Source of the DNA: Scenedesmus sp. PABB004
Taxonomy: Eukaryota
Reading direction: 5' to 3'
DNA: 64,000 nucleotides
Assembly (NCBI GenBank): GCA_014905635.1
Contig: CM026548.1
Location: 372,001-436,000 of the forward strand
Numbering within the stretch: position 1 is the stretch's first letter; every line of letters starts with the position of its first letter. Positions 22,701 through 61,691 of this stretch are shown here, piece after piece. The notes beneath the pieces are model-generated. The model searched no databases and had not been told where the DNA came from. It worked only from the letters and a program-made list of their open reading frames with translations. The position numbers were made by a program, and so were the translations under genes.

Positions 22701-23864
22701 GCCCTCGGCCCTCTCGGCCCGAGGGCAGGGTCCCGCGCGCCGCGCCGGCGGCGCCGGCGAACGTCGCGTCACAGCCGTGCATGCCGCGCGCGCGCGCAGG
22801 GTTCAAGGGCAAGGGCCTGCCGCTATACACCATCAGCCTCGCCCGGCCCTCCAGCCTCGGCGCGGGGCTCTTCCCCGGCCCGCCGGGCCTCGCGGCGCCG
22901 CGCGTCGGCGCCGAGGCCGCGGCCAAGGCGGCCAAGGAGGCGGCGGAGGCGGCCGACCGCGCGGCGGCCGAGGCGGCCGAGGCGGGCGGTGCGGGCGCTG
23001 CTGACGGCGCCGACGCGGCCGCGCCCGCAGACGACGCCGCCGCGCCGGTGCCGGCGCCGGCGCCGGTGCCGAGCGCGACCGGGCACCGCATCCGGCGGCC
23101 GGGCGAGACGTGGCGGCCGACCGACGACGGCGAGAGCGACGCGGGGGACATGATGGTGCCGGTCCTCGGCATCGGGCCGGCCTTCCAGCACGCGGGCCAG
23201 GGCGGCCGCGGCGCGAGCGCCTGGTGCGCGCCGCCGCGCAGAGCGCGCCCCGCGGCGCGCGCGCGCGTGCGGTTGCGCAGCGCCCGACGCCCGCGCGCCG
23301 CGCCCGCCGCCGCAGGCGCCCCGGCGCCGTCGACACCGACGCGCACGACGGCCCTGGCGAGGCGGGCGAGTTGCACAGCGGCGGCGGCGTCGTGCTGTGG
23401 CAGCAGGGTGCGGCGCGCGTGGCGCGGCACGCCCCAGCTCGGCTCCGCACCGCGCTGACGCCCGCGCCGCCCTGACCCGCCCCGGCCCCCCTCGCGCCGC
23501 CGCCGCCGCGCGCAGCCGGCGGGCGGCTCGTGATGGGTGCGCTGCCTGCGCCGGGCGTTCAGTACGCGGCGGGTGAGGACAGCGACGATCCGGACGCGGC
23601 CGAGACCTCGGGCGCGCGCGCGCCGGACATGGGCCAGGTGTGGCAAGCGCGGCAGGCGCGGGACGCCGGCCCGCGCGCGGGGCGCGGCGCGCTCACGCGC
23701 GGCGGCGGCGGCCGCCGCCGCACCCGCCGCGCAGGCCGCGGGCGAGCACAGCCTGCAGCTGCAGCCCGGCGAGCGCGTGGTGTCGGTGAGCTGGCAGGCC
23801 ACCACGCCGAGCGCGCCGCTCGAGCCGCACCAGTGCGCGGCGGCCATCCTCACCACGCAGGTGT

Positions 23865-32471: not shown

Positions 32472-33482
32472 ATGGCGGAGGAGGAGCAGCAGTTCGAGGA
32501 GGCGTATGAGGAGGGCGACGGCATGGACACCGGCGATGCGGGCGCAGAGGGCGAGGACAACACAGACGTGAGGCGGGGGGCAGCCCCGGGCACGAGACCG
32601 GGGGCATCCGGCCGGCGCTGCGGCAGCCGCAGCCGCAGCCGCAGCCGCAGCCGCCGGACGCGCGGCAGCGCCGCCGCCGCCGCCGCCGCTGCTGCTGCTG
32701 CTCGCGCCGCGCGGCCCCGGCGCACGGCTGCAGCCGCCTCAGCCGTGCCTGGCGCGCCCCGCGCAGGAGCTGGAGGCGATGAAGCAAAAGCTCAAAGAGC
32801 TGGAGGAGGAGGCGGCCAAGCTGCGCAGCACGCAGGTGCGCGGCCGGGTCGCAACTCGGCGCCGGCTGCAGCGGCGGCCGCGGCGGCCGCGGCGGCAGAG
32901 AGCGCGGCGGCGGCGGCGGCGGCGGCAGCGAGCGCGCAGCCCAGCGGCGCGCCCGCCCCGCGCCCGCCCGCCGCAGGCCGGCGGCGCCGAGGCGGAGGCG
33001 GAGGAGGAGGCCGCGCCCGAGGCGGGCAGCAAGGAGGAGGCCGACTCGCGCAGCGTGTTCGTAAACAACGTGGACTGGGGCGCGACGCCGGAGGAGCTGC
33101 AGCAGCACTTTGCGAGCTGCGGCACCGTCAACCGCGTGACGATCCTCACCGACAAGTTCGGCAACCCCAAGGCGCGCCGCCGGCGCGGGCCAGCCCGCCC
33201 CCGACCCGCGCGCGCCGCCGCCGCCGCGCGCGGCGCCCTCACGGCGGGTTGCCGCCGCGCCGCGGCTGCCGCGCTTCAGGGCTTTGCGTACGTGGAGTTC
33301 CTGGAGGCGGACGCGGTGGACAATGCGATCATGCAGGACAACAGCGAGCTGCGGGGCCGCCAGATCAGGGCGAGCGCCGCGGCGCTCGGGGCTGGGCTGG
33401 GCGCCGCGGGGCTGTGACGGGCGGGGCGCTGGGCGCTGGGCGCTGGGCGCTGGGCGTGCACGCGGCGCGCCGACGTCGCCGC

Positions 33483-33540
<58 letters not shown>

Positions 33541-34027
33541 GCGCAGGTGGCGCGCAAGCGCACCAACGTGCCGGGCCTGAAGCGCGGGCGCGGGCGCGGG
33601 CGGGGCCGCGGCTTCTACGGCGCGCCGCGCGGGCGCGGCGGGTACGGCTATGGCGGATACGGCGGCTATGGCGGATACGGGTAGGCGCACAGCCCTGCTG
33701 TGCCCAGCGCCAGCGCCAGCGGCAGCGCCGGCAGCAGCGCCAGCGCCAGCGGCGGCAGCAGCGGCAGCGCCAGCGGCGGCAGCGGCGCCAGCAGCGGCAG
33801 CGCCAGCGGCGGCAGCGGCGCCAGCAGCGGCAGCGGCGGCAGCGGCAGCGGCAGCAGCAGCGGCAGCAGCAGCAGCAGCGGCGGCCGTGGCGGCGGCTGG
33901 CAGCGCGCCGCTGATCGGGGCCTGCAGACGCACCGCGGGCTCGCGCGCCCACCCGCCGCCTCCCGCCGCCGCACGCAGGTATGCGCCGCGCGGGCGCGGG
34001 CGCGGTCGCGGCTACGCGCCGTACTGA
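32472..34027 (+). CDS. PABN: Nuclear poly(A)-binding protein (PABPN1/PABN/Pab2)
   Basis: [20 protein letters not shown] coiled coil; RRM with [30 protein letters not shown]-rich tail ending YAPY. Five introns, two with GC donors. Confidence 0.95.
33704..33885. repeat. Degenerate GGCAGC/GCCAGC microsatellite in the last PABN intron
   Basis: Imperfect 3/6-bp periodic array visible directly. Confidence 0.8.
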
Positions 34028-34367: not shown

Positions 34368-37300
34368 ATGCGCGGCACCGCGCCGGCCATCGCAGCCGTC
34401 GCGTATCTGCTGCTCCTCTCGGCCGCGCCGGCGGTCGCGGGCGCGGCCTGCGATGCCGGGTGCCGATCTGAGCAGCGTGATGCGCTGCTGGCGCTCTATG
34501 ACGCCACGGGCGGGCCGTGGTGGGCGCGGCAGGCGGGCTGGGCGCCCCCCGGGCCCGACCACTGCGCCTGGGAGGGCGTGGCCTGCTGCAACGCCTCCGG
34601 CACGGCCTGCCCGCTGCCTGGCGGCGTGGCGGCGCTCGCGCTGGCGGCGAACAACCTGACCGGCGCGTGGCCGGCGGCGCAGCTCGGCCGCCTCCGCGCC
34701 GGCCTCGCGGCGGTGGAGCTGGGCGGCAACCGCCTCGCCGGGCGCTGGGACTCGCGGCTGGGGTCGCTCACCCGCCTGCGCGCGCTGGGCGCGGAGGGCA
34801 ACGCGCTGTCGGGGCCGCTGCCGCCCGAGCTCGGCGCGCTGTCGGAGCTGGCGGCCCTGCGCGGCGGCGGCAACCGCTTCGCCGGCCCGCTGCCCGCGGC
34901 CCTGGGCGGCCTGAGAGCGCTGCGCGTGCTCGCGCTGGACGGCAACGCCCTCACCGGGGGCGTGCCGCCGGCGCTGTGGGCGCTGCCGGCGCTGAGCAGC
35001 GTGGCGCTGCAGGGCAACCGCCTCTCCGGCGAGCTCGCGCCGCCGCCCGGGGCGGCCGGCGGGCCGGCGGCGGCGGTGCGGACGCGCTGGGCGCGCTGGC
35101 AGGTGCGCGCGCGGGGTTGCTGGCGCGGCGCGGGGCGGCCGCCGCAGCGGCGGCAGCGGCGGCGCCGCGCGCGCGCCGCCAGCATCACCGCGCCGCGCCC
35201 GGCCGACGCGCGGCGCCCCGCAGAGCCGGCGCCGGCGATGGAGGAGGTGCTGCTGGCCCGCAACCGCCTCACCGGGAGCCTGCCGGCCTGGCTGGCCGCG
35301 CTGCCGGTGCGGACGCTGGACGCGAGCAGCAACGCGCTCAGCGGCAGCCTGCCGCCCGAGCTCGGCCGCAACACCGCGCTGCGGCAGCTGCTGCTCAGCA
35401 ACAACAGCCTCACCGGCACCCTGGCGGCCGACATGCTCAGGTGGGCGGCAGGCAGGGCGGCAGGCGGAGCTGTGGCGGCGAAGCACGGGCGGCGCGGCGG
35501 CGCCCGCCCGCCGCCGCCCGCCGACCGTCCGCGCCCGCCGCCGCGCCCGCAGCCCCAACCTGCGCGTGCTGGACCTCTCGCGCAACCGGCTGACCGGCTC
35601 GCTGCCGCCGGGGACTGGTGGACTGGCCAGCCTGCGGCTGCTGGACGCACGCGACAACGGCCTGGAGCTGGCGGGCGGGCTGCCGGCGTTCCTGGCGGTT
35701 GACAGGTGCGGCCGCTCGCCGCGCCGCCGCCGCCGGCGCGGCCGCGCAGGCAGCGGCGCCGCCGCGTGCCGGCCGCCGACGCGGCGCCGGCCGCCGCCGC
35801 CGCCCGCTGCGCGTCGCAGCTCGGCGGCCGCGGAGCCGGCAGACCCCGTGGGCGAGCCCGGGCTCATGTGCCACCCGCTCAGCCTGGTCGGCAGCCCTGG
35901 CTCGGCAGTGCTGCTCGACCCCAGCAGCTACGGCGGCGCCGGCTGCTTCTGCGCCGCGCCGTTTGCACCCGCGGGCGGCGGCGGCGGGCCGGCGTGCGCG
36001 CTGCCGGGCGCGGCGCGCGGGCCGCGCCTCGCGGCCATTGTCGCCCCGCTCGCAGTGGCGCTGGGCCTCGCGCTCGCCGCGCTCGCGTGCGTCGTGACGG
36101 CGTGGCGCTGCGGGCTGACGGGGCTGGTGCAGCGCATCACGGTTGAGAGTGAGAAGAAGGCGCCGCCCGGCGGCGCGGCCAAGGACGTGACGCTCGTGCT
36201 CACAGACGTCCAGGCGCGCGGCGCGCGCGGCGCGGGCGGTGGAGGGAGGGGCAGCGACGCTTGCAGCCTCACGCGCCGCCGCCGCCGGGCGCCGCGCGCG
36301 CGCGCAGGGCTCAACCGAGCTGTGGGAGTGGGACTCGGCGCTCGCGAGCGACGCGTTCAAGCTGCACGACCGCATCCTGCGGCACTACATGACCCTCTTC
36401 TTTGGCTACGAGGCGCGTGCGGCGCAGGGGCTCAGACGGGGTTCAGTCGGGGTTCAGGAGGGGCTCAGCGGGGGTTAAGGAGGGGTTCAGCGGCGCTCAA
36501 GGGTTTGGGGATCTCCGGCGACCCGGGGAGGGAGGCTCACGGGGGTGGAGGCAGGGCGTGTGTGCGGCGCGCGGGGCGCCGCCCACGCGCGGCCGCGCGG
36601 TGTGCGCTGCGCAGGTCTCCACCGAGGGCGACGCGTTCCTGGTGGCCTTCCACGAGCCCTTTGACGCTGTCGCGTGGTGCCTCTGCGTCCAGCTCGCGCT
36701 GCACCGTGAGCGGCGGCGGGGGGGAGAGGGCAGGGAGCGTCTGCGCGGCGCCGGAGGCCTGGCGCCGGCGCGGCGCGGCGCGCCGACGGGGGCCGGCCGC
36801 CCCGCCGCGCCGCGCCGCGCCGCGCAGACGCGGACTGGCCGGAGCCGCTGCTGCTGCACAAGACGACGTGCACCGACACGGCGGAGAGCCTGGAGGCCAA
36901 GCGCCGGCACCGCCAGGACCGCTGGCAGAGCCGCATGAGCGGCAACGACGGCGGCGCCGGCAGCCGCCGCATGTCGCGGGCGAGCCAGAGTGCATTCGCC
37001 AGCGGCGGCGGCACGCAGAGCGGCGCCGGGGGCGGCGGCGACGGCGAGCCGCCCGCCGGCGGCTGGGGCGCGGCCGGCGGGGACGCGCTGCCACCGGCGC
37101 CGCTCGTGGCGGCCGACCACGACGGCAGCGTGTTTGGCGGCGACGCCGGCGACGGCAGCAGCGACGGCGACATGGAGGCGCGCATGGCGGCGGCCTACGC
37201 GACAGCGAGCAACAGCAACAACAGCAACCAGGCGCGCGCGCGCGCGCGCGCGCTACGGGTGGTCCCCGGCGCTCGGCGTCGCCGCGCGCTGGCCCACGCG

Positions 37301-38088
37301 CTCGGCCGCACCGCGCGCCGGCCCACATGCTCCGCGCGCCGCGCCCGCGCCGCGCAGGGCGTCGACCGCGCCGTGCTGTTCCGCGGCCTGCGCGTGCGCA
37401 TGTCCATCGCGACCGGCGGCGTCGACAGCGTGCGCCTGCACAGCATCACGCAGCGCGCGGAGTACGTCGGCGAGGTGCTGCGCAAGGTGCAGGCCGTCGG
37501 CGAGACGCCGCAGGGCGGCCAGGTGCGCGGCGCTGCGGGGGGAGGCCGGCGCCGGGCCGGCGGCGCGGCGCGCCGCGGCCTCAGCCGTCCGGCCCCGGGA
37601 GGGCTGCTGATTCAAGTTTGAATGAACAAGTCGAACCGCGCGGCGCCCCGCCAGGTCGTCATGGACAGTGACACCTTTCGCGGCATCAACGCGCGCCTGC
37701 CCGAGCTCGGCGGCGTGGTGCTGGAGGCGACGCAGAAGCTGCTGCGCCGCCTCGGCGGCGCCGCGGCGGCCGACCTCGCGGCGATGCTCGGCCAGCCGCT
37801 CCCGGCCGAGGCGCCCCCTGTGACCAACGAGGGTGCGGCGCGCGCCGCTGCTGCTGCGCGGCGGCGGCGGCGGGGCCGGGCGACGGGCGCGCCGCGCCAT
37901 GCCACGCCGCGCTGAGGCGCCTGCGCTGCCTGCGTGCGCCGCAGCCTGGCTGCGGCGCAGCCTGCAGCTCGACCGCCAGAGCTTCCTGGGCCAGCAAGAG
38001 CAGCAGCGGCCGGCGCAGCAGCAGCCGGTGCAGCAGCAGCATCAGCAGCAGCAGGCGCAGGCACTGCCTGTGCAGCCGCTGGCGTCGC

Positions 38089-38152
<64 letters not shown>

Positions 38153-41100
38153 GCGCCAGCCCCGCCAGCCCCGCCAGCCCCGCCAGCCCCGCCAGCCCGG
38201 CAGCAGCGGCGGCGGCGCCGTCGGCGTCAACCCGGACGCGCTCACAGCAGCAATGACCGCGCACGGCCTGGTGCGGTGGGACGGCACCGTCGCGGGCGGG
38301 CGCAGCGCAGGGGGCAACGTCCCCGCCGGCGGCGGCGCCGCCGCGGGGAGCGCCGAGCCGGGCGGCGGCGCCGCGGCGCCGGACGAGGGCGCCGCAGGCA
38401 GCAGCCTGCTCAACCCCTACGGCGGCGGCGACATCGAGCAGGGGCGCCGCTCGCTGGGGCCCTCGCCCGCGCCGCCGCCGCCGCCGCCTCCGCCAGCGAC
38501 GGCTTCGCTGCAGCGGCGCAGGTGGGCCGCGTGGCGCGCCCCCGCGCTGCGCCGCTGCGTTGCGCGCCTGCGCGCGCGTCGCGGTGCCGCCGTTCGCGCA
38601 CCGGCGGGCCAGCTCACGCCGCCGCCCGTCCCCGCGCTGCACAGCCTGCTGGGCAAGGCCGTGGAGGTGCTCGGCCTGCGCCGGCCGGCCGGCGACGACA
38701 GCGTGAGCGCCAGCCACGACAGCGTCACCGCCGACCCCGACGCCGGCGACGCCCCGGGCGCAGGCGACGGCAGCACCGCGGCGCTCGCGGCCTTTGCCCG
38801 GTCCGGCGGCGCGCCGCTGCTGCCCTGGCCGCCGCTGCCGCGCCGCCCGGCGGCGGCGCGGCGCGGCGCCGCGCGCCGCCCCGGCGGCGTCGCCAGCTCG
38901 GCGCGGCGGCGCAGCAGCCTGTCGTACGGCGCGATGGTCATTGACATGGGCGTGCACCAGCTGACCGGCCTGCCGCAGAAGGTCAACCTCGTGCAGGTGC
39001 GCCAGCGCCGCGCCAGCGCCGCCCGGCGCCAGCGCTGCGCGGCGGCGCCGGCAGGGCGTGGCGGCCGGGCTTGCCGCGCGACCGCCGCCGCGCCGCCGCC
39101 GCCGTGCCGCGCGCGCGCCGCGCGCCGCGCGCGCGCAGGTGATGCCGTGCGGGCTGGAGGACCGCGCGCGCTTCTTCGCGCGCCTCGACTCGCTCCGCCA
39201 GGAGACGCCCGGCTACTTTGACGCGCCCGCGGCCGGCCTCGTCCCGCTCGCGCCCGGCGGCGGCGGCGCGGGCCCGCCCGGCGGCATGCCCGGCGTGTCG
39301 ATCGTGTTTTGCACCATCGACAAGTGCGCCGCGTCGCGCGCCGCGCCGGCGCGGCCCCCGCGCCCAGCTGCCAGCTGCTGCGGCACACAGCTGCGGCGCG
39401 GCCGCGCCGACCCGCCGCTGGCCCGCCGCCGACCCGCCGCCGCGCCCGTGCACTCCAGGTACCCGGAGCTGCTCGAGGCCAACCGCCCCGCCGCGGAGCT
39501 CGCGCTCGAGCTGTACAGCGACGCGGTGCGCTGGCTGCTGCTCGTGGGCGGCGGCTACGAGTGCCAGGAGGCGGAGGGGACGTTCATGGTCGCGTTCTCC
39601 TCGCCAGACGTGGGCATCGAGTGGTGCCTCATGGTGCAGCAGGTGCTGCGAGACATGTCCTGGCCGCCGAGGTGACGGCGCGCGCGCCGCGACGCCGGCG
39701 GCGGCGCTGGTGGGAGCGCGCGCCGGGAGCGCGCGCCGCACGCACGCTCACGCCGCGCCCCGCCCCGCGCTCGTGCCGCGCTCGTGCCGCACCCGGCCCG
39801 CGCAGCGTGCTGGAGCTGCCGACGTGCGAGGAGGAGCGGGACATGCACGGCGCGGTGATGTTCCGGGGGCCGCGCGTGAAGATGGGCGTGTATGCGGGCA
39901 CGCCCACGCGCGTCGTGCCGCACACCACCACCGGCCGCGCCGACTACTTCGGCCCGCTGGTGCGCCGCGCGCGGCGCAGCTCGCCGCGGCCGCGGCCGCC
40001 GCCCCGCCCGCGCGCGCGCGGCGGCCGCCGCCGCCGCCGCCGCCCTGACAAGGCCGCGCCCGCCCCGCACACCCGCGCGCGCGCGCAGGTCAACCGCGCG
40101 GCGCGCTACTGCCACGCCGCGGCGCGCGGCGGGCAGGTGCTCGTGCCCAAGGAGCTCATGTGCGAGGTGATCAGCAAGTGGGTGATGATCGACCCCGTGG
40201 AGCTGGCGCAGAGCGACCGCCTGCTCGAGCTTGCCGCCTTCTTTGACGAGGAGCGCCGCCTCTGGCCGTGGATGTTCAAGCGGCGCAGCCACTGGGACGT
40301 GCCGCTGCCGCGGCACCTCTACGCGCCGCCGCCGCCGCCGCCCGCGCCGGCCGACGGCGGCGGCGCTGGCAGCGGCGGGCCGGCCAGCGCGGCGGCGGTG
40401 GCGGCGGCGACGCCGCGCCGCTCGTCGGGGTTGAGGTGGCAGGGCAGCGACGACTCGGCGGCGGCGCCGCCGGACGCGGCGCCCGGGGCCGCCGCCTCGC
40501 GCAGCGGCAGCGGCAGCCTGCGGCGCGCGCTCGCGGGGCTCGGCCTCGCCACCCCGGCGCCCGGCCCTCACAGCAGCGGCACGAGCTCGGCCGCGCCGGC
40601 CGCTGCGGGCGGCGACGGCGAGGCGTGGCCGCCCGGCGAGCCGGGCGGCGAGGGCTCGCACCACCCGAGCCTGCCGGAGCGCGGCTCGGGGCGGCTCGCG
40701 CCGCTGCACGAGACGGCCGAGACGGGCAGCAGCAAGTGCCCGAGCGAGCTGGGGACGACCGAGTCCAACGCCCTGCACCGCGAGGCCGGTGGCGGCCAGG
40801 CCGGTCCGGGCGCCGGCGTGGGCGGCGGTGCCGGCGCCGGCGGGGCGCAGGCGCCGCCGCTGCTCGCGCCGGCGGCGGTGCTGCACGCGTTTGCGACCGC
40901 ACAGGCGCGGCGCCACTCAGACCTCGCGCAGGCCTACAGCCGCATGGGCCCCGCGGCGCTGCACGCGCTGCAGCTGCAGTACGCGGCGGCGATGGCCGGC
41001 GGCGGCGCGCTGCCCGCGGCCGGCGCGCTCGCGGGCCTCGGCGGCGGCGGCGGTGGCCTCGGCCTCGGCGCCGCGCAGCCGCTCGGCGGCGGCACGCCCA

Positions 41101-44100
41101 TCCCAGCGTCGCTCTACTTCCAGCCGCCGCCGATGCTCGCGCGCGCCGGCAGCGGCAGCGGCAGCGGCACGGGCGGGCCGGCGGGCGCCGACGGCGGCGG
41201 GCTCGCGGCCGCGTGGCCGGGGCCGCGCTACCGGCGGCCCAGCTACGTGTCGGACGTCTCGGCGCGCTACCGGCGGTCGAGCAACATCAGCGACAGCGCC
41301 GGCACCGGCGCCGACCTCACGAGCGCCGGCAGCCGCCGCCCCTCGGCGCTCTCGGACTTCTTCCCCGTCGGCGGCAGCCTCAGCGGCGGCGGCGGCGGCA
41401 GCCGGCGGCCGTCCAACCTTTCGCAATACCTCCTGCTGGACGAGGGCCAGCCCGGCTGGCCGGCGCTGGTGCCCGACTCGCCCGGCCTCGCGGCGGGCGG
41501 CGGCGGCGCCGGCGGCGCGCTCGCGGGCGGCGCGCGCGGCGGTGAGGCGGCGCGCGGGCCGGCGGGCCCGCCGCACGCGCCGGCGGCGGCGCTCCAGCTG
41601 CAGCGCCCCGCGTCGGTCGCGAGCGACGCCTCGGCCGGCGCCTGGCACCTGGGGCCGGGTCGGGGCGGCTACGCGGCGCCCCCGCCCCGGGCGGCGACGG
41701 CAGCCGGCGCAGGGGCCAGGCGGCCGCACGGTACGCGGCGGCGCAGCAGGGGCACCCGCGGCCGGGCGACGCGGGCGCGGCGGCGGCCGCGGACGCGGCG
41801 GCCGCAGCGGCTGCCGCCGCGGCCGGCTCCGGCCCGGGCAGCGGCGGGCACCCGTCGTCCACGCTGCAGAGCAGCAGCACCGGCGGCAGCCGCAGCAGCG
41901 CCGGCCGCGGCGGCGCCGGCGGCGCGCCGGCCGCTCCGCCCGCGGCGCAGCTCATGCAGGGCCTGGAGAGCCAGGTCGTGCCCGGCATGCTGCACAGCAG
42001 CAACCGGCTGCGCCTCGTGAGCAAGCGGCGGCGGCAGATGAGCTACTGCTACTTCCAGGAGTCTAGCCAGCCGGGCATCCCCGCCGACGGCGCCGACCCG
42101 CGGCGCCTGCTGCCGCCGGGGTTCTCGCACTCGAGCGCCGGCACGCCCGGCGGCCTGCCGCCGCTGGCGAGCCACTACGCGGGCAGCGACGCCGGCGCGA
42201 GCACGGCCGCGGGGCCGGGCAGCGTGGCGGGCTCGCTCGCGCCGGCCGGCGCCGGGCGCGGGGCGGGCGGGGGGCCGCCCAGCGCAGACAGCGCCGCGCT
42301 GGGCAGCGGCGGCGCCAGCGCCGCCGGCACCAGCGCCGGCGAGTCGGTCGACTCGGGGGTCGCGCTGCAGGCGGGCCTCGCGGCCGCGGCCGGCGCCGGC
42401 GCCGACGGAGCCGCGCTGCCCCTGCCGCCGCCGGCAGTGGCAACCCCGCGGGCAGCGGCGGCGGCGCGGCCGCGCCCGGCGGCGCGGCCGAGCCACAGCT
42501 GAGCCACGGCAGCTGGCAGCCGGGCGGCAGCGCCAGCACCGGCGCCGGCGCCGGCGCCGCCGCGGCGGCAGGCGCGCGCGGCGGCGGCGCGCTGGTGGAC
42601 GACTACTGCGGCCTTCCTGAGATCGACCCGCTGCCTGACGTGGATGTGCTGGAGAGCCTGCGGCTCGCCGTGCCGCAGCCGCGCTGGCACCGCCCGAGCA
42701 ACGTGTCCAGCCTCGCGACCGGCACGGGCGAGAGCGTGGCGGGCTTTGAGGGCGCGAGCATCGGCAACATGTGCGCCGACATCATGCGCGGGCGCTGGCT
42801 GTGGATCGGGGAGCTGCTGGTGCACGACCTCGGCCAGTTCAGGTGCGGTGCACGCGCACGCGCGGCGCGCGCCGCCGGCTGCGCGCCCGGCCGCCTGTGA
42901 CGCGCGGGCGCCGCGGGCCCCCACGCGCGCCCCGCCCCGCCCCGCCCCGCCGCCGCCGCGCGCAGGTTCAAGGGCGTCGCCGGCGTGCACTCGATCGTGA
43001 GCGTTACGAGCGAGGAGCTCGGCGGCCGCACCTTCCCGACCACGATCCGGCGCGGCAAGGGCGAGCAGGTCCGGCTCGGCCGCGGCCTGCTGGCGCTGGT
43101 GCAGATGCTGGCGCGGCCGCGGCCGTCGAGCTGGGGCGGGCCGTACCTGGGGCAGCAGCTGCTGCAGAGCCCCGCGCCCACGCCGGGGCCGGAGGGCGTG
43201 TCGTTCCTGCCGCAGCCGCTGCCCGGCAGCGCGGTGTGCGCGGCGTGCGGCAGCGGCGGCTCGGGCCCGGCCAGCGACGAGCTCGCGCAGCCGGCGGGCG
43301 ACGCCGGCGCCGGCCTCGCCGACCCGCGGCAGCAGGCCGCGCTGCTGCACGGCGCGGCGCCGCTCGCGGGCTGGCCGGCGGCGCGGCGGGGCCGCCGCAC
43401 GGCGGCGCCTGGCCCGCCGGCGCGCGCTGGCAGTCGCGGCCGGCGTCGGTGGAGCAGCAGCGCCACGTCGTGCGCGTCAGCTCGCTCGGCGACCTCGGCG
43501 ACGTGCGCTTGGGCGCGCTGCCCGAGCTCGCCGCGCTGCTGCCGGCGCACGGCGGGCTGCACGGCCTCACGCACCACAGGTCCGCGCCGGAGGCTGACGT
43601 CGCCCACGCGGCGGCGGCCGCGGGCGGCGCGCGCGGGTCGCTGCTGCTGCCGCCCCACCTCACCTGGCAGCAGCAGCTCGCGGCGGGCACGTGGGCGGCG
43701 CAGCAGGCGGCGCAGGCGCAGCGCCGCCGCCGCCGGCACAGCGTGTGCGTGGGCAGCGTGAGCCACCGCCTGTGGTCGCGGCCGTACGGCGTGATGGACG
43801 AGCTTCAGCCTTTTGAGGAGAGCGATGAGTGGCTCTTCCAGGCCGCGCAGGCCTCGCAGCGCGCCGAAAGCTCGCGCGCGTCGTCCGCGCTCGACCACGC
43901 GCAGCCCTGCGCCGGCGCGGGCGCGGGCGGCGCGCCCGCCGCCGCGCCCGCGGCGCGGGCGGCGCCACGGTCGCCGCTGGCGGGCGCGGCGGCGCCCAGC
44001 GGCAGCGCCGGCGACGCGGCGGGCGGCGGCGCGGCGGACGACGTGGCGCGCGCCCCCGACCTGGAAGGCTCGGAGGCCTGCTCGGAGCCTGCCGCTCACG

Positions 44101-44309: not shown

Positions 44310-45039
44310 CGTGTGGGCTCCTGGCCCGCCTGGCCCTCGGCTGCCGCGACGACCTTGGCCCCGGGGGCGCGTGATTGGGTGCGCGCCCTCGCGGCCGCAG
44401 GCGGTCGGTTTTCAGTGAAGCTGTGCGGCGAATTGTTCCGTTTCGTGAGAACTGCGTTCGGTGGTTGGCGTTTTGATTTGGCCGGGGGCTCGCGCGGCGC
44501 GCGCGCGGCGTCGCGCCCCGCCGCACTGCCTCGCTAATGCTTGGTCGGAGACGCAAGCACGTCGCGTGGGGCGGATTACCGGTGCACACACACACGCTTT
44601 TCTACACCTGTTTCTTCGTGCAGGACGCTGGAGATTGGATTGGGGCTCTCGCAGCGCGCGCGCGTGGCGGCGCCGGCAGGCGCCCGCGTTGCCTCCACGC
44701 TTTGCGACGCGCGGTCGCGGGCTTTTCGACCGCTTTGGAGGGCAACGTGCACGCCCGCATGCACTGGCGCGCGCGTGCAGCGCCAGTAAAAGCAGGCACC
44801 CGTGCGCGGCGCGCGCCGCAGCGCGGCAGCCGACCAATCGCGCCGGCCGTCGCGCAGCGCGGCCGCCAGGGCTTACGCCGCCGCCCACGCCCTGTGCCGC
44901 CGAGGAGAGACCGCTCGTCGCAGAGAGCTCCCCGCCGACCTGCAGCGCCGAACCCGCCGCTGCTCGCGCGCGCAGCGCCGCCGGGCATGCGCGCCGCCAC
45001 GGCGCGCAGCTGAGTCGCCGGGCTCGGGCACAGCTGACC

Positions 45040-48000
45040 ATGGACGCCACGGCGCCGGCCAAGCTGGGGCTGGAGGGCGCGGAGGGCCGGGACCTGGATG
45101 CCGTCGAGGGCGACTTCCAGCAGGCGCGTCGCGGCGCGCTCGCGCACCACTCACGCCAGTCCTAGACCCGCCCCTGATCTCCCGGCGCGCGGCGGCGGTC
45201 CCGCGTGGCCGCGCCAGCAGCCGCGGCGGCGCGCGCGCAGCGCGGCGCGGCGCCCTCTCCCGCGACGGCCGCCGCGCGCCCCGGCCTGCGTGCCGCCCCA
45301 CAGGTGGTGGCGGAGCTTGCGGGCGACAAGGGGCTGGAGCGCTTCCGCATTGAGTACGAGAAGCTCTTCCGCGCCCTCAAAAAGAGCCACGGTGCGCGGC
45401 ACGCGCGCGCGCCGCCGCGTGCCGCGCCGCCGCGCCCTGGCGCGCCCGCGGCGCCGCCTGCCGTCCGGCTGGCCGCGAGCCCCGGCGCGCTCCTGCGCCG
45501 CCGCGGCAGACAATGAGAAGCGCCTGGTGCGCAAGTGCCGGGAGCTCAACTCGGAGATCGTCGGCAACGCGGCCAAGGTGGCGACGGCGCTCAAGCTGAG
45601 CGAGGAGGACCAGCAGACGATCCTGGCGCTCAAGCGGGAGATCGAGAAGGCCTGGAAGTCGGTCGACGCCAGCCACGACAAGGCGCGGCGCTGCCGTGCG
45701 CTGGTCGCTGCGCGCTGCGCCCTGCGCGCTGGTCGCTGCATGCCGCGCCGCCGCCCGGCGCGCCGCGACGCCGCCGCGACGCCGCTGCGACGCCGCCGCG
45801 ACGCCGCCGCGACGCCGCCACGCGCGCGCGCCGCCGCGCGTGCGCAGGAGGCCCAGGCCAAGGAGGCGATCGGGCAGCTCAAGGCTGAGATCGCCAACCT
45901 CACGCACCTCGCCGAGGCCGGCAGCGCGCTGAGCTCGGGCGAGGAGGCGACGCTCGCGGAGCTGATGCGGCAGAAGGAGGAGCTCACCCACGAGCGCGAC
46001 GCGCAGGCGCGTGGGGGAGGGGAGGAGATGGGGGCGGCGGCGGCTGCGCGGCAAGCCGGGGCGCGCCTGCGCGGGGCCGGCGCGCGGCGGCGACCGCGCA
46101 CCGCCCCGCCGCGCGCGCCGCAGGTGGGGCAGATCCTGGCGCTGCGGTCGGACCTAATGGAGGCGGCGGAGAAGGCGCGGCGCGTAGAGGCGGACAAGCT
46201 GCAGCTGGAGGCTGACATCGGGGGCCTGAAGCAGCAGGCGCGCCGCGCAGCGCGGCGCAGCCCGCTTGCTGGCGGCTGCGTCGCACCTCGCCTCGCCTCG
46301 CCTCGCCTCGCCTCGCCTCGGCTGGCTAGCTGGCTGGCTGGCCCGGGCTGCTGCTGCGGCGGTGCCCGGCGCACCGCCCGCTACCGCGCTCACGCTCGCG
46401 CCGCCCGCGCAGGTCGCGGAGAAGCGGTCCGAGGCGGAGCGCGAGGCGCGGCGGCGCGAGCGTCTGGACAAGGAGGCGCGCGACCTGCGGGCGCAGGTGG
46501 AGGCCGTGAACACCGAGGTGCGGCGAGGGGCGGCGGACAGCCCCGGCCGCGGCGGCCGCGCCGCGCCGAGGCGCGCGCGCACCCTGCGGCGGCGGACGCG
46601 CGCGCCGCCCGCTGCGCCGCGCAGGCCCGCAGCAAGCAGCTGGACATCGCCGGCGCGGAGGAGCAGGTCGCGCGGCTGGAGGGTCAGCTCAAGGAGGCGC
46701 GCAGCGCGACCGAGCGCGTGCAGAAGGACTGCAACGGCCTCAGCGAGAAGGTGCGCGGGCAGTGGCGCGGCGGCGCGGTGTGCATTCATGGCTCGGGGCC
46801 GCGCGCGCGCGCGGCGTGCGCTGCGGCCGACGGCGCCAGGGCCTGGCGTTGCTGGAGCGGGCGGCGCGGACACGCGCTGGCGTTCACCTGCGCGGCCCGG
46901 CCCGTGGCGCGGCAGGTGACCAAGCTGCACCGCGACCTGGAAGACGCGGTCCACGCCAACGCGCAGCTGCTCGCTGAGAGCGGCGCGCGGCAGGTGGAGC
47001 TGCGCGGCAAGGAGGAGGAGGGCGCCGCGCTGCGCCTGGAGATGGCCAAGGTCGTCAAGGTGCGGCGAGGGGGGCTCGCGGGGCCAGGCACGCGCCGCCC
47101 GCTGCACGCGCCGCGTCCGCCCGCTGCACGCGCCGCGTGCCGCCGGCGGCACGCGCGCGCGCTGCGGGCGCTGCCCGCCCGGGTGTGCTGCGCGGCGACG
47201 GTGCCCGCCTCGCCCGGTGCGACGGCGCCAGGTCAAGGACGCGACGGTGAAGCGCATGCGGGGCCTGGAGGAGGCCAAGGCGGCCGTGGAGGCGGAGCGC
47301 GATGCGCTCAAGGCGGCGGTGTCGGCGCTCGAGCGCGACGTCGCCGACGCGCGGCGCGGCGCCGACTCGGAGCGGCGCCAGCTGGAGGAGCTCGCGCACG
47401 AGCGCGACGTGCTCAACCGGCTGCGCACGCAGGTGGGGCGGGGCGCCCGCGCGGCGGGAACGCGCTGCGCGGCGGGGTCGCGCGGGCGGCCGGGCGCGGC
47501 GGCCCTCGCGCAGGGGCGGCTGCGCAGGCAGGCGCGCGTCCGCGCCGACCGCTGGCGGCGCTGCCGCTGCCGCGCCTGCTGCCGCGCAGGCCGACTCTGC
47601 GACGCAGAAGCAGGCCGACCTGGTGCGGATGACCGAGAGCACCAAGCGCACGCTGGAGCAGGAGGTCGCGGCGTACAGGTGCGCCCGGCGCGGCGGCGAG
47701 GGCGGGGCCGCGGCCCGCGGCGGCGGCGCTCCGCGCTGCGTGTGGCGCGGGTGGCGAGCGCGCGCCGAGCGCCGAGCGCGGCGGGGCGTCGCGCGCGCGG
47801 CGCAGGGCCGAGGCGCAGCGCTCGGCGAAGCAGCTGGTGTCGCTGGAGAAGGAGCGGGAGAGGTACATCGCCGAAGCGAACGAGGCGACGGCGCGGCACA
47901 CGCAGGTACGGCGCGGCGCGCTGGTGTGCGTGCGGGGAAGGAGGGTGCGCGGCGCCCGCCGCCTTGGCGCTCGCGCCGGCGCCGCTGTGCGCGACAAGCC

Positions 48001-50145
48001 GCGCCGCTGACCCCCGGCGCCAGGCGCTGGACGAGGTCCGCGTGCGCGAGGCGGCGCTGGTGGAGCTGCAGCGCCGCATCGGCGACGGCGAGGGGCGGCT
48101 GAAGGCGCAGCAGGCGCTGTACGAGGCGGTGCGGGCGGACCGCAACATGTACAGCAAGTCCCTCATCGAGGCACAGGTGCGTGGGTGGGTGTGTGGCTGT
48201 GTGGCTGTGGGTGTGGGTGTGTTTGTGTGTGTTGGGTGTGTTTGTGTGGTGGCTGCGGGGGCGCCTGCTGCGCGTCCAAGCTGCCGCCGCAGCCCTGAGT
48301 CCGCGCGCGTGCGGCGTGCGCGCGCCGGACCCCTGACCCGCGCCCGCCCGACTCCGCGCCGCGCCGCCTCAATTTAAATGCTGCTGCGCGCGCCTGACGG
48401 CATCACTCAGGACGAGATCGGCGAGATGAAGCGCAAGTTCAAGATCCTGGGCCACCAGGTGGAGCAGCTCAAGGAGGAGATCAGCGCCAAGGACCTCGCG
48501 CTCGTCAAGGAGCACTTTGACCACATGAAGGCGCGGCGCCCGGCGCTGGCTTGCGGCTCACAGTGTCACGGCCCTGAGCCAGGGCTCAGGGCCGTGTCAG
48601 CGCAGGGCTGCGTCGGGCGGCAGCAGGGCGGCGCGCGTATCACCGCCGCCGCCGCGCGCCGCCGCGCCGCGCCAGGTCGAGAAGGAGAAGGAGGCGCTGC
48701 GCGCGGAGCTGACCAAGGCGCGGGGGAGCATCGGCGAGGCCGAGGCCGCCATCGGGGGGCAGAAGGCGCAGCTGGAGAAGCTAAACCACGTGGTGACAGA
48801 GGCGGACGCGGGTGCGCGCGGCGCGGCGCCGCCGCCGGGGCGGCGCGCAGGGGCGCGGCGCGCGCATTGCCCCCCGGGCCTGGGCCTGAGCCTGGGCGCC
48901 ACACCACCGCCGCGCGCGGTGCGTCCACTGCGCCCGCAACGCGCCCGCGCCCGCGCCGTGCAGAGCGGCTGCGCCAGAAGAAGGAGCTGGAGCTGGTGCT
49001 GGGCGAGCGCGACATCCTGGGCACGCAGCTCGTGCGGCGCAACGACGAGCTCGCGCTGCTGTACGAAAAGGTCAAGATCCAGCAGTCCACGCTCACGCGC
49101 GGGCAGGCGCAGTACCGCGACAGGTGTGCTGACCGCGCGCGCGCGGGAGGGGAGAGGGCTGAGGGTCGTGGGAGCGGCCGGGCGGCGGCGGGCAGGCAGG
49201 GCGGCGCCGGCGCGCGGCGCCGGCTGGCAGCGACCGTCACCGCCGCCGGCCGCCCACCCCGCCGCCGCGCGCCGGTCACTCCGCCCCGCCCGACCCCGCC
49301 CTGCCGCGCCGCCACGCCCCGCCCCACCCCGCTGCCGCGCGCCGTTCACCCCGCCCCGCCCCACCCCACCCCGCCCCGCCCCGCTGCCACGCCCACCCCG
49401 CCCCGCCCCGCCCTGCCCGCCGGTCACTCCGCCCCCGCCGCTGGTGCCAGGCTGGGCGAGATCCGTGTGCTCAAGATCAAGCTGGCTGACTTGCGGCGCG
49501 AGATGCACGTCCTGCGCACCGGCGTGGCCAACGTCGATGTGCTCAAGCGCGAGGCGAGGAGCTCGCGGCGGCGCCCGCGGCGGCAGCGGCGCCGGCACAG
49601 CGGGCGGGGCTGCGCCGGCGGCGCGGCGCGCGGCCCCGCCGACGACGCCCCGCCTCTGCGCGTGCGCGGCGCGCGCCCGCAGGTCGCGAGCCTGGGCCGG
49701 CAGCTGCTGCAGGAGCGCACCAAGGTGCGCGCGCTGAGCGAGGAGCTGGAGACCCCGCTCAACGTCCACCGGTGCGCGCGCGCGCGCCCGCGCTCGCCCG
49801 CCCGCGCGCCCCGCGCCGACGCGGCCGCGCGGCAGTGCCTGCGCCAGGGGTGGCGGCGGCCGGCGGAGCCGCCGCCGCGCGCACACACCGCCTGCCGCCG
49901 CCGCGCGCGCGTCGTGCCGTCGCCGGGCGTGGTTTTGCAGGTGGCGCAAGCTCGAGGGCAGCGACCCGTCGACGTATGAGATGGTGCAGAAGATCCAGAC
50001 GCTGCAGCGCCGCCTCATCGGAAAGACCGAGGAGGCAGTGGAGAAGGACCTGCTCATACAGGCGCGCCACACGGGGAGGAGGAGGGGCCCCGGTGGGGTT
50101 TTGAAGGAGGAGGGGCTTGCAGGACAGGGCGCTGGCAGGACAGGG

Positions 50146-50182
<37 letters not shown>

Positions 50183-50932
50183 TGCCGCGCGGCGCGTGCG
50201 GGCGGGGGCCGGCCCTGCCAGCACCGCGTCCCTGCCCGCGCGCCCGCCGCTGCGCTGAGCAGCACACATGAACATGCCACGCGGTGGGTGCGCCGTGCCG
50301 CGCGCAGGAGAAGGAGAAGCTGTACGTGGAGCTCAAGGGCATCCTCGCGCGCCAGCCGGGGCCCGAGGTCGCGGAGCAGCTCAGCATCTACCAGGCGCGC
50401 CGCGGCGGCTTGCCGCGGCGCGGGGGCCGGCCGCGGCTGCGGCTGCAGTCAGCTGACCGGCGCCGCCGCGCGCCGCCGCCGCCAGGCGAGCCTGCGCGAC
50501 AAGACCAAGCAGCTCAAGGCGATGGCGAGCGAGCTCAACATGTACCAGGCGCAGGTGTGCCGGCGGCCGCGGGGCGGGGGCAGCCACTCGGCGGGCGGCG
50601 CAGGACGGGCGGCCGCGCCATCGGGCGGTCGAGCGCGGCGGGCGTTGACTGCGCCTGCCACGCGGCCTGCGCAGGTCGCCGAGTACAAGTACGAGATAGA
50701 GCGCCTCAGCGGCGAGCTGGCGGGGCTCAAGAAGAAGTACTTTGAGGCCAAAAAGCGCGAGCAGCTGGAGCGCGAGGCCGGGCGGGCCGGCGCGGGCGCG
50801 CTCGCGGCCGGCGCCGGCGCGGCCGCGGGCGGCAAGGCGGCAGCGGCGGCGGCGGCCGCCGCGGCCGCCGCGGCGCAGCAGCGCTTCACGGGCGGCGGCT
50901 TCTCGCTGAGCAGCAGCACGGTGGCGGGGTGA
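45040..50932 (+). CDS. CFAP58: Cilia- and flagella-associated protein 58 (FAP58/FAP189/CCDC147 family)
   Basis: LERFRIEYEKLFRALKKSHDNEKRL..LYEAVRADRNMYSKSLIEAQDEI..ERDILGTQLVRRNDELALLYEK..ELETPLNVHRWRKLEGSDP..RFTGGGF. Twenty introns, eight GC-AG. Confidence 0.95.
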
Positions 50933-55304: not shown

Positions 55305-57236
55305 TCACGGCACGGCCTTGCTGGGGTCCTTCACCGTGCCCTGCGCGGCGCGGCCGGGACCGGGCGCGGCCGTCAGCGCCGGCCGTGCCGCTGCGCCGCG
55401 CCGCGCGCGCGCAGCGCCGCGCCGTCCTGCCGCCCCGGCCAGCACCATACCGACCTGGAACAGCACGGCGCCGCTGGGCTCGTCGACGAGTACGAAGAGG
55501 AAGGGTCGGTTGAACACCAGCGGCGGCGTGGAGGGCTCGACGAACGACGTCGTCGTCATGACCACGCTCGTCACCGCGGCCGCCTCGGTGCCGCGCTCGT
55601 CGACGAGCACCACCGACTGCGCGCGGCGGCGGCGGCGGAGGCGGCGGCGGCGGCGGCGGTGGCGAGGAGGGTCGGGCCGCGTCGGCGCGGCGCGGCGGGC
55701 GCAGCGCCGGGCGCTGCCGGCCGGGCGCTGCCGGCCGGGCGCGGCCGGCGGGCGCGGCGCACCGACTGCACGACCGAGGTGATGAACAGCGCCTCTGGCG
55801 ACATGCGGCTGAAGTTGGCGGCGTCCGGGTCGAACGCCGCCGTCACGCCGAGCGCGCGCAGCGCCGCGCCGAGCGGGAGCTGCTCCGCGCGGACCTTGAA
55901 GCGCGGCAGCTGCAGCGTGAGCGACCCGAGCGCGGCCACGCTGCGCCAGGCCGAGCCGTTGAGCAGCGGGCCGAGGCCGATGCCCGCCGCGGCCGCGTCG
56001 GCGTTGAGGCCGTACTTTGCCTCGTCGGGCAGCACCGCGATCGCGACCACGCCGGTCCCGCGGTACGGCAGCTTGACGGCGCGGTACTGCCCCGCCGCCT
56101 CGGCGTACGCGACGTTGCCGCCGGCGTTGATGTCGCGCGGCTCAAAGCGGCGGTACATCATGTCCACAGCCACCGTCTGCCGCGCAGGGGGTGCAGGGCG
56201 GAGCGGGCGCGGAGCGGCGGCGCGCGGCGGCGGGGTGGCGAGTGAGCGCGAGCGGGGCGCCGCCCCCGCCGGGCAGGGCCGGGGCCGGGCCTCCCCGCGC
56301 GGCGGCGGCGTGCATGCGCGCGCGCGCACCGCGGCCTTGCCGCCCGGGCCCGCGACGGAGAACGGCCGCTTGCTCGTGGTGTCGGGGTCAAACGCGTAGA
56401 CCCAGGATGACTTGAAGTAGACTGCGCGGCGCCGTTGGGTGGTCGGGTGGGCGGCTTGCGCGAGCCGCGCGGCTTGCTCGAGCCGGCCGGCTGTGCCCGC
56501 GCGAGCCAGCCCGCGCGGCGGGGGCGCCGGGGCCCTGGCGGCGCGCCGGCCCTGCAGGGTTCATGGTTCCCTGCCCCGTCGGTCGCTCACTCACCGGCGT
56601 TGGTGACGATGAGGTTGAACTCGGTGCCGGGGGGCACCGCCTGCGTGATGCGGCCGCCCGTCTTGGCCGCCGCCCAGGCGTTGATCGGCGTCGTGTCGTT
56701 GACCGCCTTGACCGGCGTTTTGAAGGTCGCCCACATGCGCTCGCCAAACGCCTTGTTCACCGCGAGGCGGCGCGTCCAGACGCCGTTGGCGATGCCCAGC
56801 TCGGTGCCGTTTGCGGTTCCAGGGGATTGCAGCAGGCCCGCGACGAGCGCCGCCGCGCGCGCGTTGAGCGACGCCTCCGCCGCCGCCCAGCCGCCCGCCG
56901 TGAGGTTGGCGGGCGGCCCGCCGCCGCTCGGCGGCGCGAGCGCCGCCCACAGCTGCTGCTGCGTGCTGCTGAGCGGGCCTGCGGCGGCGCCGGCGGCGGC
57001 GGGCGCGGTTGGCGGCGGGCGGCGACCGCCAGCTGCCGCCGGCGGGTGACGCCGCCGAGCCGCCAAACTGACCGCCCCGTGACGCCGCTCTCACCGGCTC
57101 CGTTCAGCACGATGACCAGTGCCAACCACACCGAGAGCGGGCTGACGAACGCGCCGGCTGGCAGGCCTGCGAGGGCCCCCGACTTGAGCAGCTCCCGATA
57201 GAGAGCCGCGCCGAACGCCACGGCCGCGTCAGACAT
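55305..57236 (-). CDS. Serpin with inhibitory-type hinge and no signal peptide
   Basis: FVSPLSV, INAWAAAKTGGRI, TNA|VYFKSSW, LPRFKV, VDERGTEAAAVT and FNRPFLFVL motifs. Five introns. Minus-strand TGTAA at 55127-55131. Confidence 0.95.
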
Positions 57237-60207: not shown

Positions 60208-61691
60208 CCATCCGTGTAGCAGCAGGCACCAGTCAAGCGCAGCAGCGGCAGGGGCAGCAGCATGGGCAGCATCAGGGGCAGCAGGCGGCGCGCCCGGCGG
60301 CGCGCCTGGCGTCGCGAGCGGCGGGCTCACCGTCGGCCCGCTCAGCGGCGACGACGCGGGCGGCGACGCGGGCTGCGAGTGGGTGCCGCCGGACCCGGAG
60401 CTCGGGCGCGTGAGCTACCGCCTGTTGGTCGCCTACGACGGCACCGCCTACTCGGGCTGGCAGCTCCAGCCGGGCCGCGCGCGGACGATCCAGGTGCGCC
60501 GAGGCGCGGCTGCTCGCGCGCCCCACGCGCCCGCGCCGCGCCGCGGCTGCGCGCTCACTCGCGCGCCGCGCATCGCCGCGCTGCCAGGGCGAGTTTGAGC
60601 GCGTGCTGGGCACGGCGCTACAGGAGGGCCGGCGCACGCTGTGCGTGTGCGCGGCGGGCCGCACCGACGCGGGCGTGCACGCGCGCGGGCAGGTGGTGCA
60701 GTTTTACAGCAACGCGGCGTCCCTCGACCCCGCGTGGCTGCCGGGCAAGCTCAACAGCATGCTGCCGCACGACGTGCGCGTGCTCTGGGCGGCGCGCACG
60801 GCGCCCGACTTCAGCGTCACCGTGTCGGCGCTGCGCAAGGTGCGGGCGGGCCGCTGCTGCGCCGTCGGAGCTCACCGCTCCTGAGAGCGCGGCGCGGCGC
60901 GGCGCGGGGCGGGGCGCGCGCCGGGCAGAGCCCTCAGCGCTGGCAGGGTTTTATGATGACGAGCACCCTCCAAAACCCCGCCGCGCCGCCGGCAGACGTA
61001 CCACTATGCCGTGGACGTCGGCGCCGCGCACGACCCGCTGCGCCACCGCTTTGCCACGCACGCGCGCCGCGCGCTCGACGTGCCCGCGATGCGCGCCGGC
61101 GCGGCGCTGCTGGTCGGCACGCACGACTTCACGCAGTTCAGCAACGCCGCGCCCGAGCGCCTGCGGCGCAACCCGGTGAAGCGGCTCGAGGCGCTGGACG
61201 TGGTCGACGACGGCCCCGCCGGCCTGCGCCTCGAGGCGCGCGCCGTGCGCCGCGGCGCCGCGCGGGGCGCCGTCCGGGCGGGGCCGCGCGCGCCCGCGCC
61301 GCGCGGGGCGCGCCCGCCCTCGGACCCCGCGTTGACGCGCCCGCCGCCGCAGGTCACGGGGAGCGGTTTCCTGTACAAGCAGGTCCGCCACATGGCGGGC
61401 GCGCTGCTCGCGCTCGGCGAGGGCCGGCTGGGCCTCGACGCCATCGCTGCGCGGCTCGCACTCGGCGCCGCGAGCCCGCCGGGCGCGGGCGGGGTGTGGC
61501 GGGGGTACAACGTCGCGCCCGCCAAGGGCCTGTGCCTCGTGCGCGTCGAGTACCCGCCCGCCGTGGACGACCCGGGCGCGCTGCTTTATCCGGAGCGGCC
61601 GCACGACGCGCACGGCCGCCTGCTGCACCGCGCGCGCGCCGGCGCGGGCGGCAGCGCGGGCGGCAGCACCGACGCCGACGACGAGGACTGA
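60208..61691 (+). CDS. truA: tRNA pseudouridine synthase A family protein; start unresolved
   Basis: VAYDGTAYSGWQLQ, AGRTDAGVHARGQV, GTHDFTQF, GSGFLYKQVRHMAG and APAKGLCL motifs. Three internal introns, one GC-AG. No in-frame ATG after the TMEM42-like stop. Confidence 0.92.

Follow-up and report, generated by a model that had tools for sequence, protein, structure and literature searches.

Introns that begin with GC instead of GT and end with AG have been described at high frequency in several algae with very GC-rich DNA. Iwata and Gotoh (2011) give GC-AG shares of 39.6% for Aureococcus, 22.2% for Micromonas pusilla, and 7.7% for a Chlorella sp., and tie high shares to a genomic GC content between 66% and 70%, the 5′ end of the U1 small nuclear RNA (snRNA) being reported as canonical in Aureococcus and Micromonas (PMC3033335). 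For Emiliania huxleyi, Feldmesser and colleagues (2014) found 135 out of 241 curated junctions (~56%) to be GC-AG, confirmed nine GC junctions by reverse-transcription PCR, linked their abundance to high genomic GC content, and blamed wrong gene models on predictors restricted to GT (PMC4028052). Furthermore, a 2024 preprint reports 14–17% for Aureococcus strains and ~14% for Pelagomonas, as opposed to 0.32% in a relative of low GC content (bioRxiv 10.1101/2024.10.30.620910), and plants are given an average of 1.2% (PMC6310983). In this study, the introns of a 64-kb stretch of DNA from Scenedesmus sp. PABB004 (contig CM026548.1, positions 372,001 to 436,000; hereafter, the window) were analyzed, and GC-AG introns were found to account for about 30–37% of those that could be anchored. 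They are quite likely to be ordinary U2-type introns, which are frequent under extreme GC pressure, are compensated by their flanking bases, and are handled by the standard splicing machinery. The phenomenon as such is known; the window represents a new, more GC-extreme host from a different algal lineage. A preceding interpretation of the window (in the following, the sequence-only reading) had taken ~1% as the usual GC-AG proportion in eukaryotes, which does not hold as a universal value in view of the published 39.6%, 22.2%, and ~56% (PMC3033335, PMC4028052).

The gene for CFAP58 features the largest number of GC donors. Its modelled frame comprises 2,679 nt and 892 codons with no internal stop. 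The eight GC donors proposed for its 20 introns in the sequence-only reading were all confirmed by sequence, homologs, and spliced alignment. The gene and its GC-AG introns are as follows (positions are those of the window):

45040–50932, + strand: CFAP58 gene, 21 exons and 20 introns (8 GC-AG, 12 GT-AG), 892 codons, from spliced alignment to homologs
45124–45303, + strand: CFAP58 intron 1, GC-AG, 180 nt, phase 0; position common to other organisms
45683–45847, + strand: CFAP58 intron 3, GC-AG, 165 nt, phase 0
46007–46123, + strand: CFAP58 intron 4, GC-AG, 117 nt, phase 0
46238–46412, + strand: CFAP58 intron 5, GC-AG, 175 nt, phase 0; frameshift if retained
48531–48675, + strand: CFAP58 intron 13, GC-AG, 145 nt, phase 0; frameshift if retained; junction indels in 0 of 46 homologs
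49554–49682, + strand: CFAP58 intron 16, GC-AG, donor GCGAG, 129 nt, phase 0; nearest GT alternative loses five conserved codons
50062–50307, + strand: CFAP58 intron 18, GC-AG, 246 nt, phase 0; in-frame stop if retained
50395–50485, + strand: CFAP58 intron 19, GC-AG, 91 nt, phase 0; frameshift if retained

At each of the eight positions, GC directly follows an exon-terminal AG, and the donor reads GCGCG in seven cases and GCGAG in one, in agreement with the previous description of nearly all GC donors as AG|GCGCG or AG|GCGAG.

Homologs were retrieved with one open frame holding four CFAP58 exons, which matched 776 proteins (E ≤ 0.001); among the matches listed, proteins carry the Pfam family PF21771 (CFAP58 central coiled coil). 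A single 67-aa CFAP58 exon used as the query gave no match. Colinearity was evaluated for 46 homologs, namely one transcript-derived partial protein and the first 45 proteins of 800–935 aa among 120 matches listed, and all 20 junctions were colinear with them. Within ±8 residues of the eight GC junctions, insertions were seen in zero or one of the 40 to 46 homologs, whereas deletions were counted in 9/40 at intron 1, which lies in the variable N-terminus, in 2/45 at intron 3, in 1/45 each at introns 4 and 5, and in 0/46 at the other four. Furthermore, a custom protein-to-DNA spliced aligner was applied, in which donors could be GT or GC and acceptors had to be AG, GC being penalized by 8 score units relative to GT. 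Despite this penalty, exactly the 20 model introns were returned for each of three homologs (the closest relative, Chlamydomonas incerta, and a crinoid). With GC and GT at equal cost, one or two spurious introns were added in the low-complexity ends of the gene, and with GC donors forbidden, the alignment score dropped by 153–164 units for all three homologs.

These results bear on the question of whether the GC donors represent a gene-modelling artefact, that is, whether the real mRNAs use nearby GT donors or keep the respective stretches as coding sequence. Reading frames do stay open through introns at ~80% GC, one example being a stop-free frame of 864 codons (45038–47632), which spans CFAP58 exons 1–10 including their introns; three of the eight CFAP58 GC introns would, if read through, cause neither a stop nor a frameshift, one donor in another gene (TruA-like, see below) is truly ambiguous, and an ab initio gene finder over-called GC donors. 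On the other hand, the homologs of CFAP58, PABN, and a NudCD2-like protein lack an insertion at the junctions, and retention would cause a frameshift or stop in five of the eight CFAP58 GC introns. Codon periodicity is absent in all eight (pooled read-through GC content 0.86/0.83/0.85 at the three positions vs. 0.74/0.39/0.96 in exons). Sliding the boundaries of these introns never produced GT-AG or AT-AC, and the nearest frame-compatible GT donors would alter the protein by 5–24 codons, costing at least five conserved codons. Prohibition of GC lowered the score in six out of six tests on CFAP58 and the oxidoreductase described next. An artefact of this kind is very improbable.

Several low-complexity tracts were also observed in CFAP58 introns, namely a CCTCG-type repeat (46286–46345), a GT-rich tract in otherwise T-poor DNA (48180–48245), and a long CCCCGCC-type run (49240–49420) within the 327-nt intron 15.

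The same approach was followed for a second gene:

4670–7517, + strand: amine-oxidase-like oxidoreductase, 3 of 10 introns GC-AG (5061–5144, 6217–6344, and 7158–7246), from spliced alignment to homologs

One open frame of this gene, used as the query of an exhaustive HMMER search, gave 478 matches, from which 15 longer ones were hand-picked for spliced alignment. Ten introns recur in 9–15 of the 15 alignments, and the GC introns starting at 5061, 6217, and 7158 were chosen by 12, 10, and 12 of the 15 homologs, respectively, despite the GC penalty; forbidding GC reduced the score by 51–73 units. Hence, the three GC donors previously proposed for this gene stood, whereas the proposed number of eleven introns is replaced by ten with homology support.

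In two further genes, GC junctions are covered by solved structures of homologs:

32472–33684, + strand: PABN (nuclear poly(A)-binding protein) gene, GC donors in two of four introns, PDB chain 2m70_A at both GC junctions
33172–33279, + strand: PABN intron 3, GC-AG, 108 nt, inside the RRM, between Pfam RRM_1 positions 38 and 39
33370–33546, + strand: PABN intron 4, GC-AG, exon end GG, donor GCGAG, 177 nt
12362–13339, − strand: NudCD2-like gene, GC donor in one of four introns, PDB chain 2rh0_A at the GC junction
12461–12595, − strand: NudCD2-like intron 4, GC-AG, 135 nt

The PABN donors are, in order, GT, GT, GC (33172), and GC (33370); both GC donors had been noted before, among five introns instead of the four counted here. 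Chain 2m70_A matches through residue 115 before intron 3 and resumes at residue 115/116 after it, and the exon following intron 4 carries the conserved C-terminal continuation without a gap, whereas GT alternatives at intron 4 would insert ~14 extra residues absent from the solved homolog. For the NudCD2-like gene (donors GT, GT, GT, and GC at 12595), the 135-nt intron 4 coincides exactly with 45 residues that have no counterpart in the aligned chain 2rh0_A.

In total, GC donors were found in 11 out of 30 introns of the two genes analyzed with the spliced aligner (CFAP58 and the oxidoreductase), in 14 out of 44 introns of six homology-anchored genes (31.8%, 95% interval 18.6–47.6%), and in 18 out of 58 introns of all nine modelled genes, the last count including four calls based on the reading frame, one of them ambiguous. 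The 14 GC junctions with homolog support are distributed among CFAP58 (8), the oxidoreductase (3), PABN (2), and the NudCD2-like gene (1). All 18 GC donors are paired with AG acceptors, and none of the nine gene models contains an internal stop. Compared to a background of 1.2%, the proportions of 8/20 in CFAP58 or 14/44 in the window correspond to p ~1e-16. Within the window, to which this statement is confined, both features of the GC-AG-enriched, high-GC algae were found, i.e., a GC content of at least ~65% together with GC-AG introns amounting to no less than several percent.

An ab initio gene finder based on coding potential was tried as a counting tool, with one of the two verified genes serving for training and the other for testing. 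Trained on CFAP58, it recovered three to four of the ten oxidoreductase introns; trained on the oxidoreductase, it recovered 12–13 of the 20 CFAP58 introns, and added 9–10 false ones (7–9 with GC donors); the introns it missed were mostly GT. In this cross-validation it performed poorly, with errors tending toward false GC donors, and it was not adopted for counting.

The GC donors are not randomly distributed with respect to their sequence context. An exon-terminal AG precedes 17 of the 18 GC donors vs. 16 of the 40 GT donors (p = 1e-4), in line with the earlier proposal that exonic AG accompanies C at position +2, and GC was found in 15 of the 24 donors within the context AG|GYGCG vs. 3 of the 34 elsewhere (p = 2e-5). 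The AG trend is also seen in the two genes for which the aligner ignored the context (11/11 vs. 11/19, p = 0.014). GCGCG occurs in 15 of the 18 GC donors and GTGCG in 23 of the 40 GT donors. In eight genes, the consensus of GT donors (+3 G in 34/37, +4 C in 24/37, and +5 G in 35/37) is shared by the GC donors (16/17, 15/17, and 17/17, respectively). The acceptor reads CAG in 16/17 GC and 37/37 GT introns, and the downstream exon begins with G in 16/17 GC introns vs. 25/37 GT introns (p = 0.04); no difference in intron length was seen between GC and GT introns. Judged by this consensus, the GC donors appear to be U2-type sites which follow the GT consensus of their host apart from position +2 and possess strengthened flanks. 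U1 pairs with donor positions −3 to +6; C at +2 loses one pair, and pairing at −2/−1 can compensate for it. The context rule is clear in the window, C at +2 being common only behind AG and before GCG, and fits compensation through U1 pairing. Mammalian GC-AG introns reportedly show stronger flanking consensus and the same compensation, as described by Thanaraj and Clark in 2001.

The window consists of eukaryotic nuclear DNA, and its composition makes the extreme GC pressure assumed in the sequence-only reading plausible. GC content ranges between 0.764 and 0.823 in every 4-kb bin, third codon positions of the two best-modelled genes are 96% GC, and intron interiors (3,506 nt from 30 introns) consist of 42.3% G, 43.5% C, 8.0% T, and 6.2% A, so that T makes up ~16% of C+T. 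GC dinucleotides are ~4 times as common as GT in the DNA of the window. An unconstrained position +2 would, by composition, be ~84% C, but C was observed in 62% of donors in the strong context and in 9% in weak contexts; therefore, selection for T would be weak behind a strong flank and strong elsewhere. As stop-free frames traverse introns, open frames say little on gene structure in this DNA. Numerous introns of the window are also multiples of three without stops, and calls based on open reading frames would fuse them with exons.

In the mechanism that we propose, pressure toward G and C, for which mutation bias and biased gene conversion, singly or combined, are candidate sources, would convert T to C at +2, and the change would persist at donors whose remaining 5′ splice-site positions still pair well with U1 and, subsequently, with U6. 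The permissive context would be an exon end AG followed by G-Y-G-C-G, and in weaker contexts selection would keep T at +2. A change in the splicing machinery would not be needed.

Such a change was nevertheless considered as an alternative, according to which an altered machinery (the U1 5′ end, the U6 ACAGAGA box, or protein factors) tolerates or prefers C at +2, the GC donors reflecting adaptation of recognition and not drift under GC pressure. It would agree with C being the majority at +2 in the strong context (15/24), with a share above that of most annotated green algae, such as the 7.7% given for Chlorella sp. (PMC3033335), and with the common donor GTGCG, which is already unlike the usual GTAAG/GTGAG. 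However, T is kept at +2 in 40 of the 58 donors (~69%) although it accounts for only ~16% of intron C+T, meaning that the "relaxed recognition" of the sequence-only reading was overstated, and the need of GC donors for a stronger flank is what a standard U1 would produce. A canonical U1 5′ end is reported for algae whose GC-AG shares are similar or higher (PMC3033335), and no result obtained here required a change. An altered machinery is, hence, decidedly unlikely, and a variant U1 or U6 snRNA would appear to be unnecessary, because Aureococcus and Micromonas combine a high GC-AG share with a canonical U1. Base-call or assembly errors that systematically turned T into C represent another conceivable source of GC donors. 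Nothing specific speaks for them beyond the difficulties that some sequencing chemistries can have with extreme GC content; they would have to target intron position +2, preferentially behind AG, while sparing the coding sequence around it, which was intact in nine genes, and their probability is close to negligible.

Introner elements are known from Micromonas and Aureococcus, two algae rich in GC-AG introns, and a mobile intron family carrying a GC donor could have spread recently in the window as well. The donors are indeed very uniform; yet, except for +2, their consensus is also that of the GT introns, and an all-vs-all comparison of 54 introns revealed low-complexity matches only (73–87% identity), equally for GC and GT introns and with no preference of GC introns for each other. 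The position of CFAP58 intron 1 is, moreover, common to distant organisms, which also speaks against recent spread, and we consider a mobile family highly improbable. In a metagenome scan for CFAP58 relatives, 80 loci of at most 68% identity were obtained, 37 of them having no intron call and the others few. The position and phase of intron 1, which lies in phase 0 behind residue 32 of the closest homolog, are occupied in 7 of 41 intron-bearing metagenome loci examined (loci L001, L013, L043, L056, L075, and L080 represent this site), with GT in six (55–64% GC) and GC in one doubtful short call, the GC penalty of the aligner slightly favoring GT calls here. Among the 20 CFAP58 intron positions, only that of intron 1 is common to the metagenome loci. 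The pattern fits a T-to-C change at the intron 1 donor within this lineage, its direction being read from one conserved position. Regarding minor introns, the U12-type motif [AG]TATCCTT was found in none of the 58 donors, and Chlorophyta are reported to be devoid of minor introns and minor snRNAs (PMC11347168).

Several points weigh against ordinary GC-AG introns under GC pressure as the explanation, or against the numbers attached to it. Splicing at the exact sites is what we infer from conserved proteins, and the sample is one 64-kb window with nine genes modelled and six anchored. The shares are uneven among genes, GC donors being found in 0/4 introns of a serpin gene and in 0/2 of the RPS26 gene. 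Four of the 18 GC calls are derived from the reading frame, one of them competing with a GT donor of equal quality at a distance of 9 nt, and counts from unanchored genes or frame-based calls are to be read as upper estimates, because the gene finder over-calls GC donors. The enrichment of AG in hand-built genes could in part be due to ascertainment. An Rfam scan of the 64-kb window yielded no family match and hence no U1 or U6 gene located there. Finally, Iwata and Gotoh list Micromonas RCC299 with 2.7% GC-AG at 64% GC, so that GC content alone is insufficient (PMC3033335).

The remaining genes analyzed in the window are:

− strand: RPS26 gene, GC donors in none of two introns; Pfam positions 60 and 62 flank the second intron
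55470–57236, − strand: serpin gene, GC donors in none of four introns; partly anchored by Pfam, with positions 312 and 313 at the last intron
− strand: COG0212 / 5-formyltetrahydrofolate cyclo-ligase-like gene, GC donors in two of five introns (GT, GT, GC, GC, GT); reading frame only
3032–3143, − strand: COG0212-like intron 3, GC-AG; reading frame only
2858–2953, − strand: COG0212-like intron 4, GC-AG, donor GCACG; reading frame only
Fasciclin (FAS1) gene, GC donor in one of six complete introns; Fasciclin domains matched; reading frame only
1184–1382, − strand: FAS1 intron 3, GC-AG; reading frame only
+ strand: TruA-like pseudouridine synthase gene, GC donor in one of three introns, ambiguous; reading frame only
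61236–61352, + strand: TruA-like third intron, donor either GC at 61236 or GT at 61245

For the COG0212-like gene, the previously given count of two GC donors in five introns was reproduced from the reading frame; no in-frame GT alternative was seen for intron 3, and Pfam searches with short exons and a PDB search with the COG0212 frame gave no junction evidence. For FAS1, the single GC donor was recovered, likewise from the reading frame, among six complete introns (6–7 in all), one in seven having been given before. The two TruA-like donors, 9 nt apart and in frame, both feature a good consensus, and the spacing relative to Pfam and to chain 1vs3_A fits either; they could be alternative 5′ splice sites differing by three codons.

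The donors of the serpin gene are all GT, two of them being AT-richer (GTGAGA and GTGAGT), and its exons end with CG or TCG and not with AG as in CFAP58, showing that donor style varies between neighboring genes. The second RPS26 intron (16809–17541, − strand) has a length of 733 nt, ~5 times the window median (~140 nt), and is rich in GCN-type triplets (GCG/GCA/GCC). A homolog search with the TWD40-1 open frame (20377–23001) returned no match. The exons of a large gene containing leucine-rich repeats (35238–43904), which had been named a cyclase gene, gave no cyclase match in Pfam at E ≤ 0.05; a long CAG/glutamine run (37959–38150, + strand) was observed within this gene.

In a quick maximum-likelihood tree of CFAP58, the window protein fell into a clade of seven rows together with two Monoraphidium species and four other proteins, with a support of 100 in the Shimodaira–Hasegawa-like approximate likelihood ratio test (SH-aLRT); its nearest relatives show 80–82% identity. 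According to this tree, the lineage would be a chlorophycean green alga near the Sphaeropleales and close to Monoraphidium. Most Sphaeropleales genomes are described as having ~56% GC, values above 70% being given for Monoraphidium and one Scenedesmus (PMC12571836). The GC level of the window would be notable in itself if typical of the whole genome. To our knowledge, 76–82% GC is above the values of published green-algal nuclear genomes, which reach the low 70s percent. Taken together, the genome could be among the most GC-rich nuclear genomes, position +2 could be nearly free to be C or T in the best context, and the GC-AG share, if genome-wide, would be the highest of the green plant lineage, possibly with co-evolved U1/U6 or proofreading factors of the 5′ splice site; this combined interpretation is rather unlikely as a whole but, if true, would make the lineage a natural test bed for minimal 5′ splice-site recognition.

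For gene annotation, the consequences are considerable. A gene finder limited to GT-AG would break approximately one in three introns here and, therefore, most multi-exon genes, and the open frames through introns make such errors hard to notice. Because GT-only and coding-potential finders err in opposite directions, annotation of this genome and of related ones needs RNA evidence or homology-anchored alignment permitting GC donors.

The nearest named relative is Monoraphidium neglectum, a sphaeroplealean alga with 64.7% GC whose genes contain ~4 introns on average (PMC6310983, supplement file 7). It is listed with 19 major non-canonical junctions out of 67,746, as compared to 496 out of 8,831 for M. 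pusilla (PMC6310983, supplement file 8), and RNA validation of the M. neglectum non-canonical junctions is reported to be low (PMC6310983). A literature search, which covered the field in part and is no proof of absence, found annotation counts but no RNA-supported GC-AG share for sphaeroplealean or chlorophycean algae. Like the host of the window, M. neglectum is GC-rich, but differs by having close to zero annotated non-canonical junctions; this near-absence of GC-AG introns may be a product of gene prediction restricted to GT donors, with the same phenomenon possibly concealed behind it.

As in Aureococcus, M. pusilla, and E. huxleyi, the window combines very GC-rich DNA with GC donors amounting to tens of percent and an acceptor that is still AG, gene finders limited to GT-AG mispredict, and the authors of the studies on those algae also credited GC content. 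In contrast to those algae, with 65–70% GC genome-wide, the window has 76–82% GC, and its share was obtained from one window and seen in the DNA alone. It extends the established relation of GC-AG share to GC content by a point of much higher GC. Compared to the GC-AG introns of plants and animals, those of the window are likewise U2-type with an AG acceptor, and the rest of their 5′ splice site is nearer to the consensus than in GT introns; they differ in being ~25-fold more frequent and in following the local consensus GYGCG instead of GYAAG.

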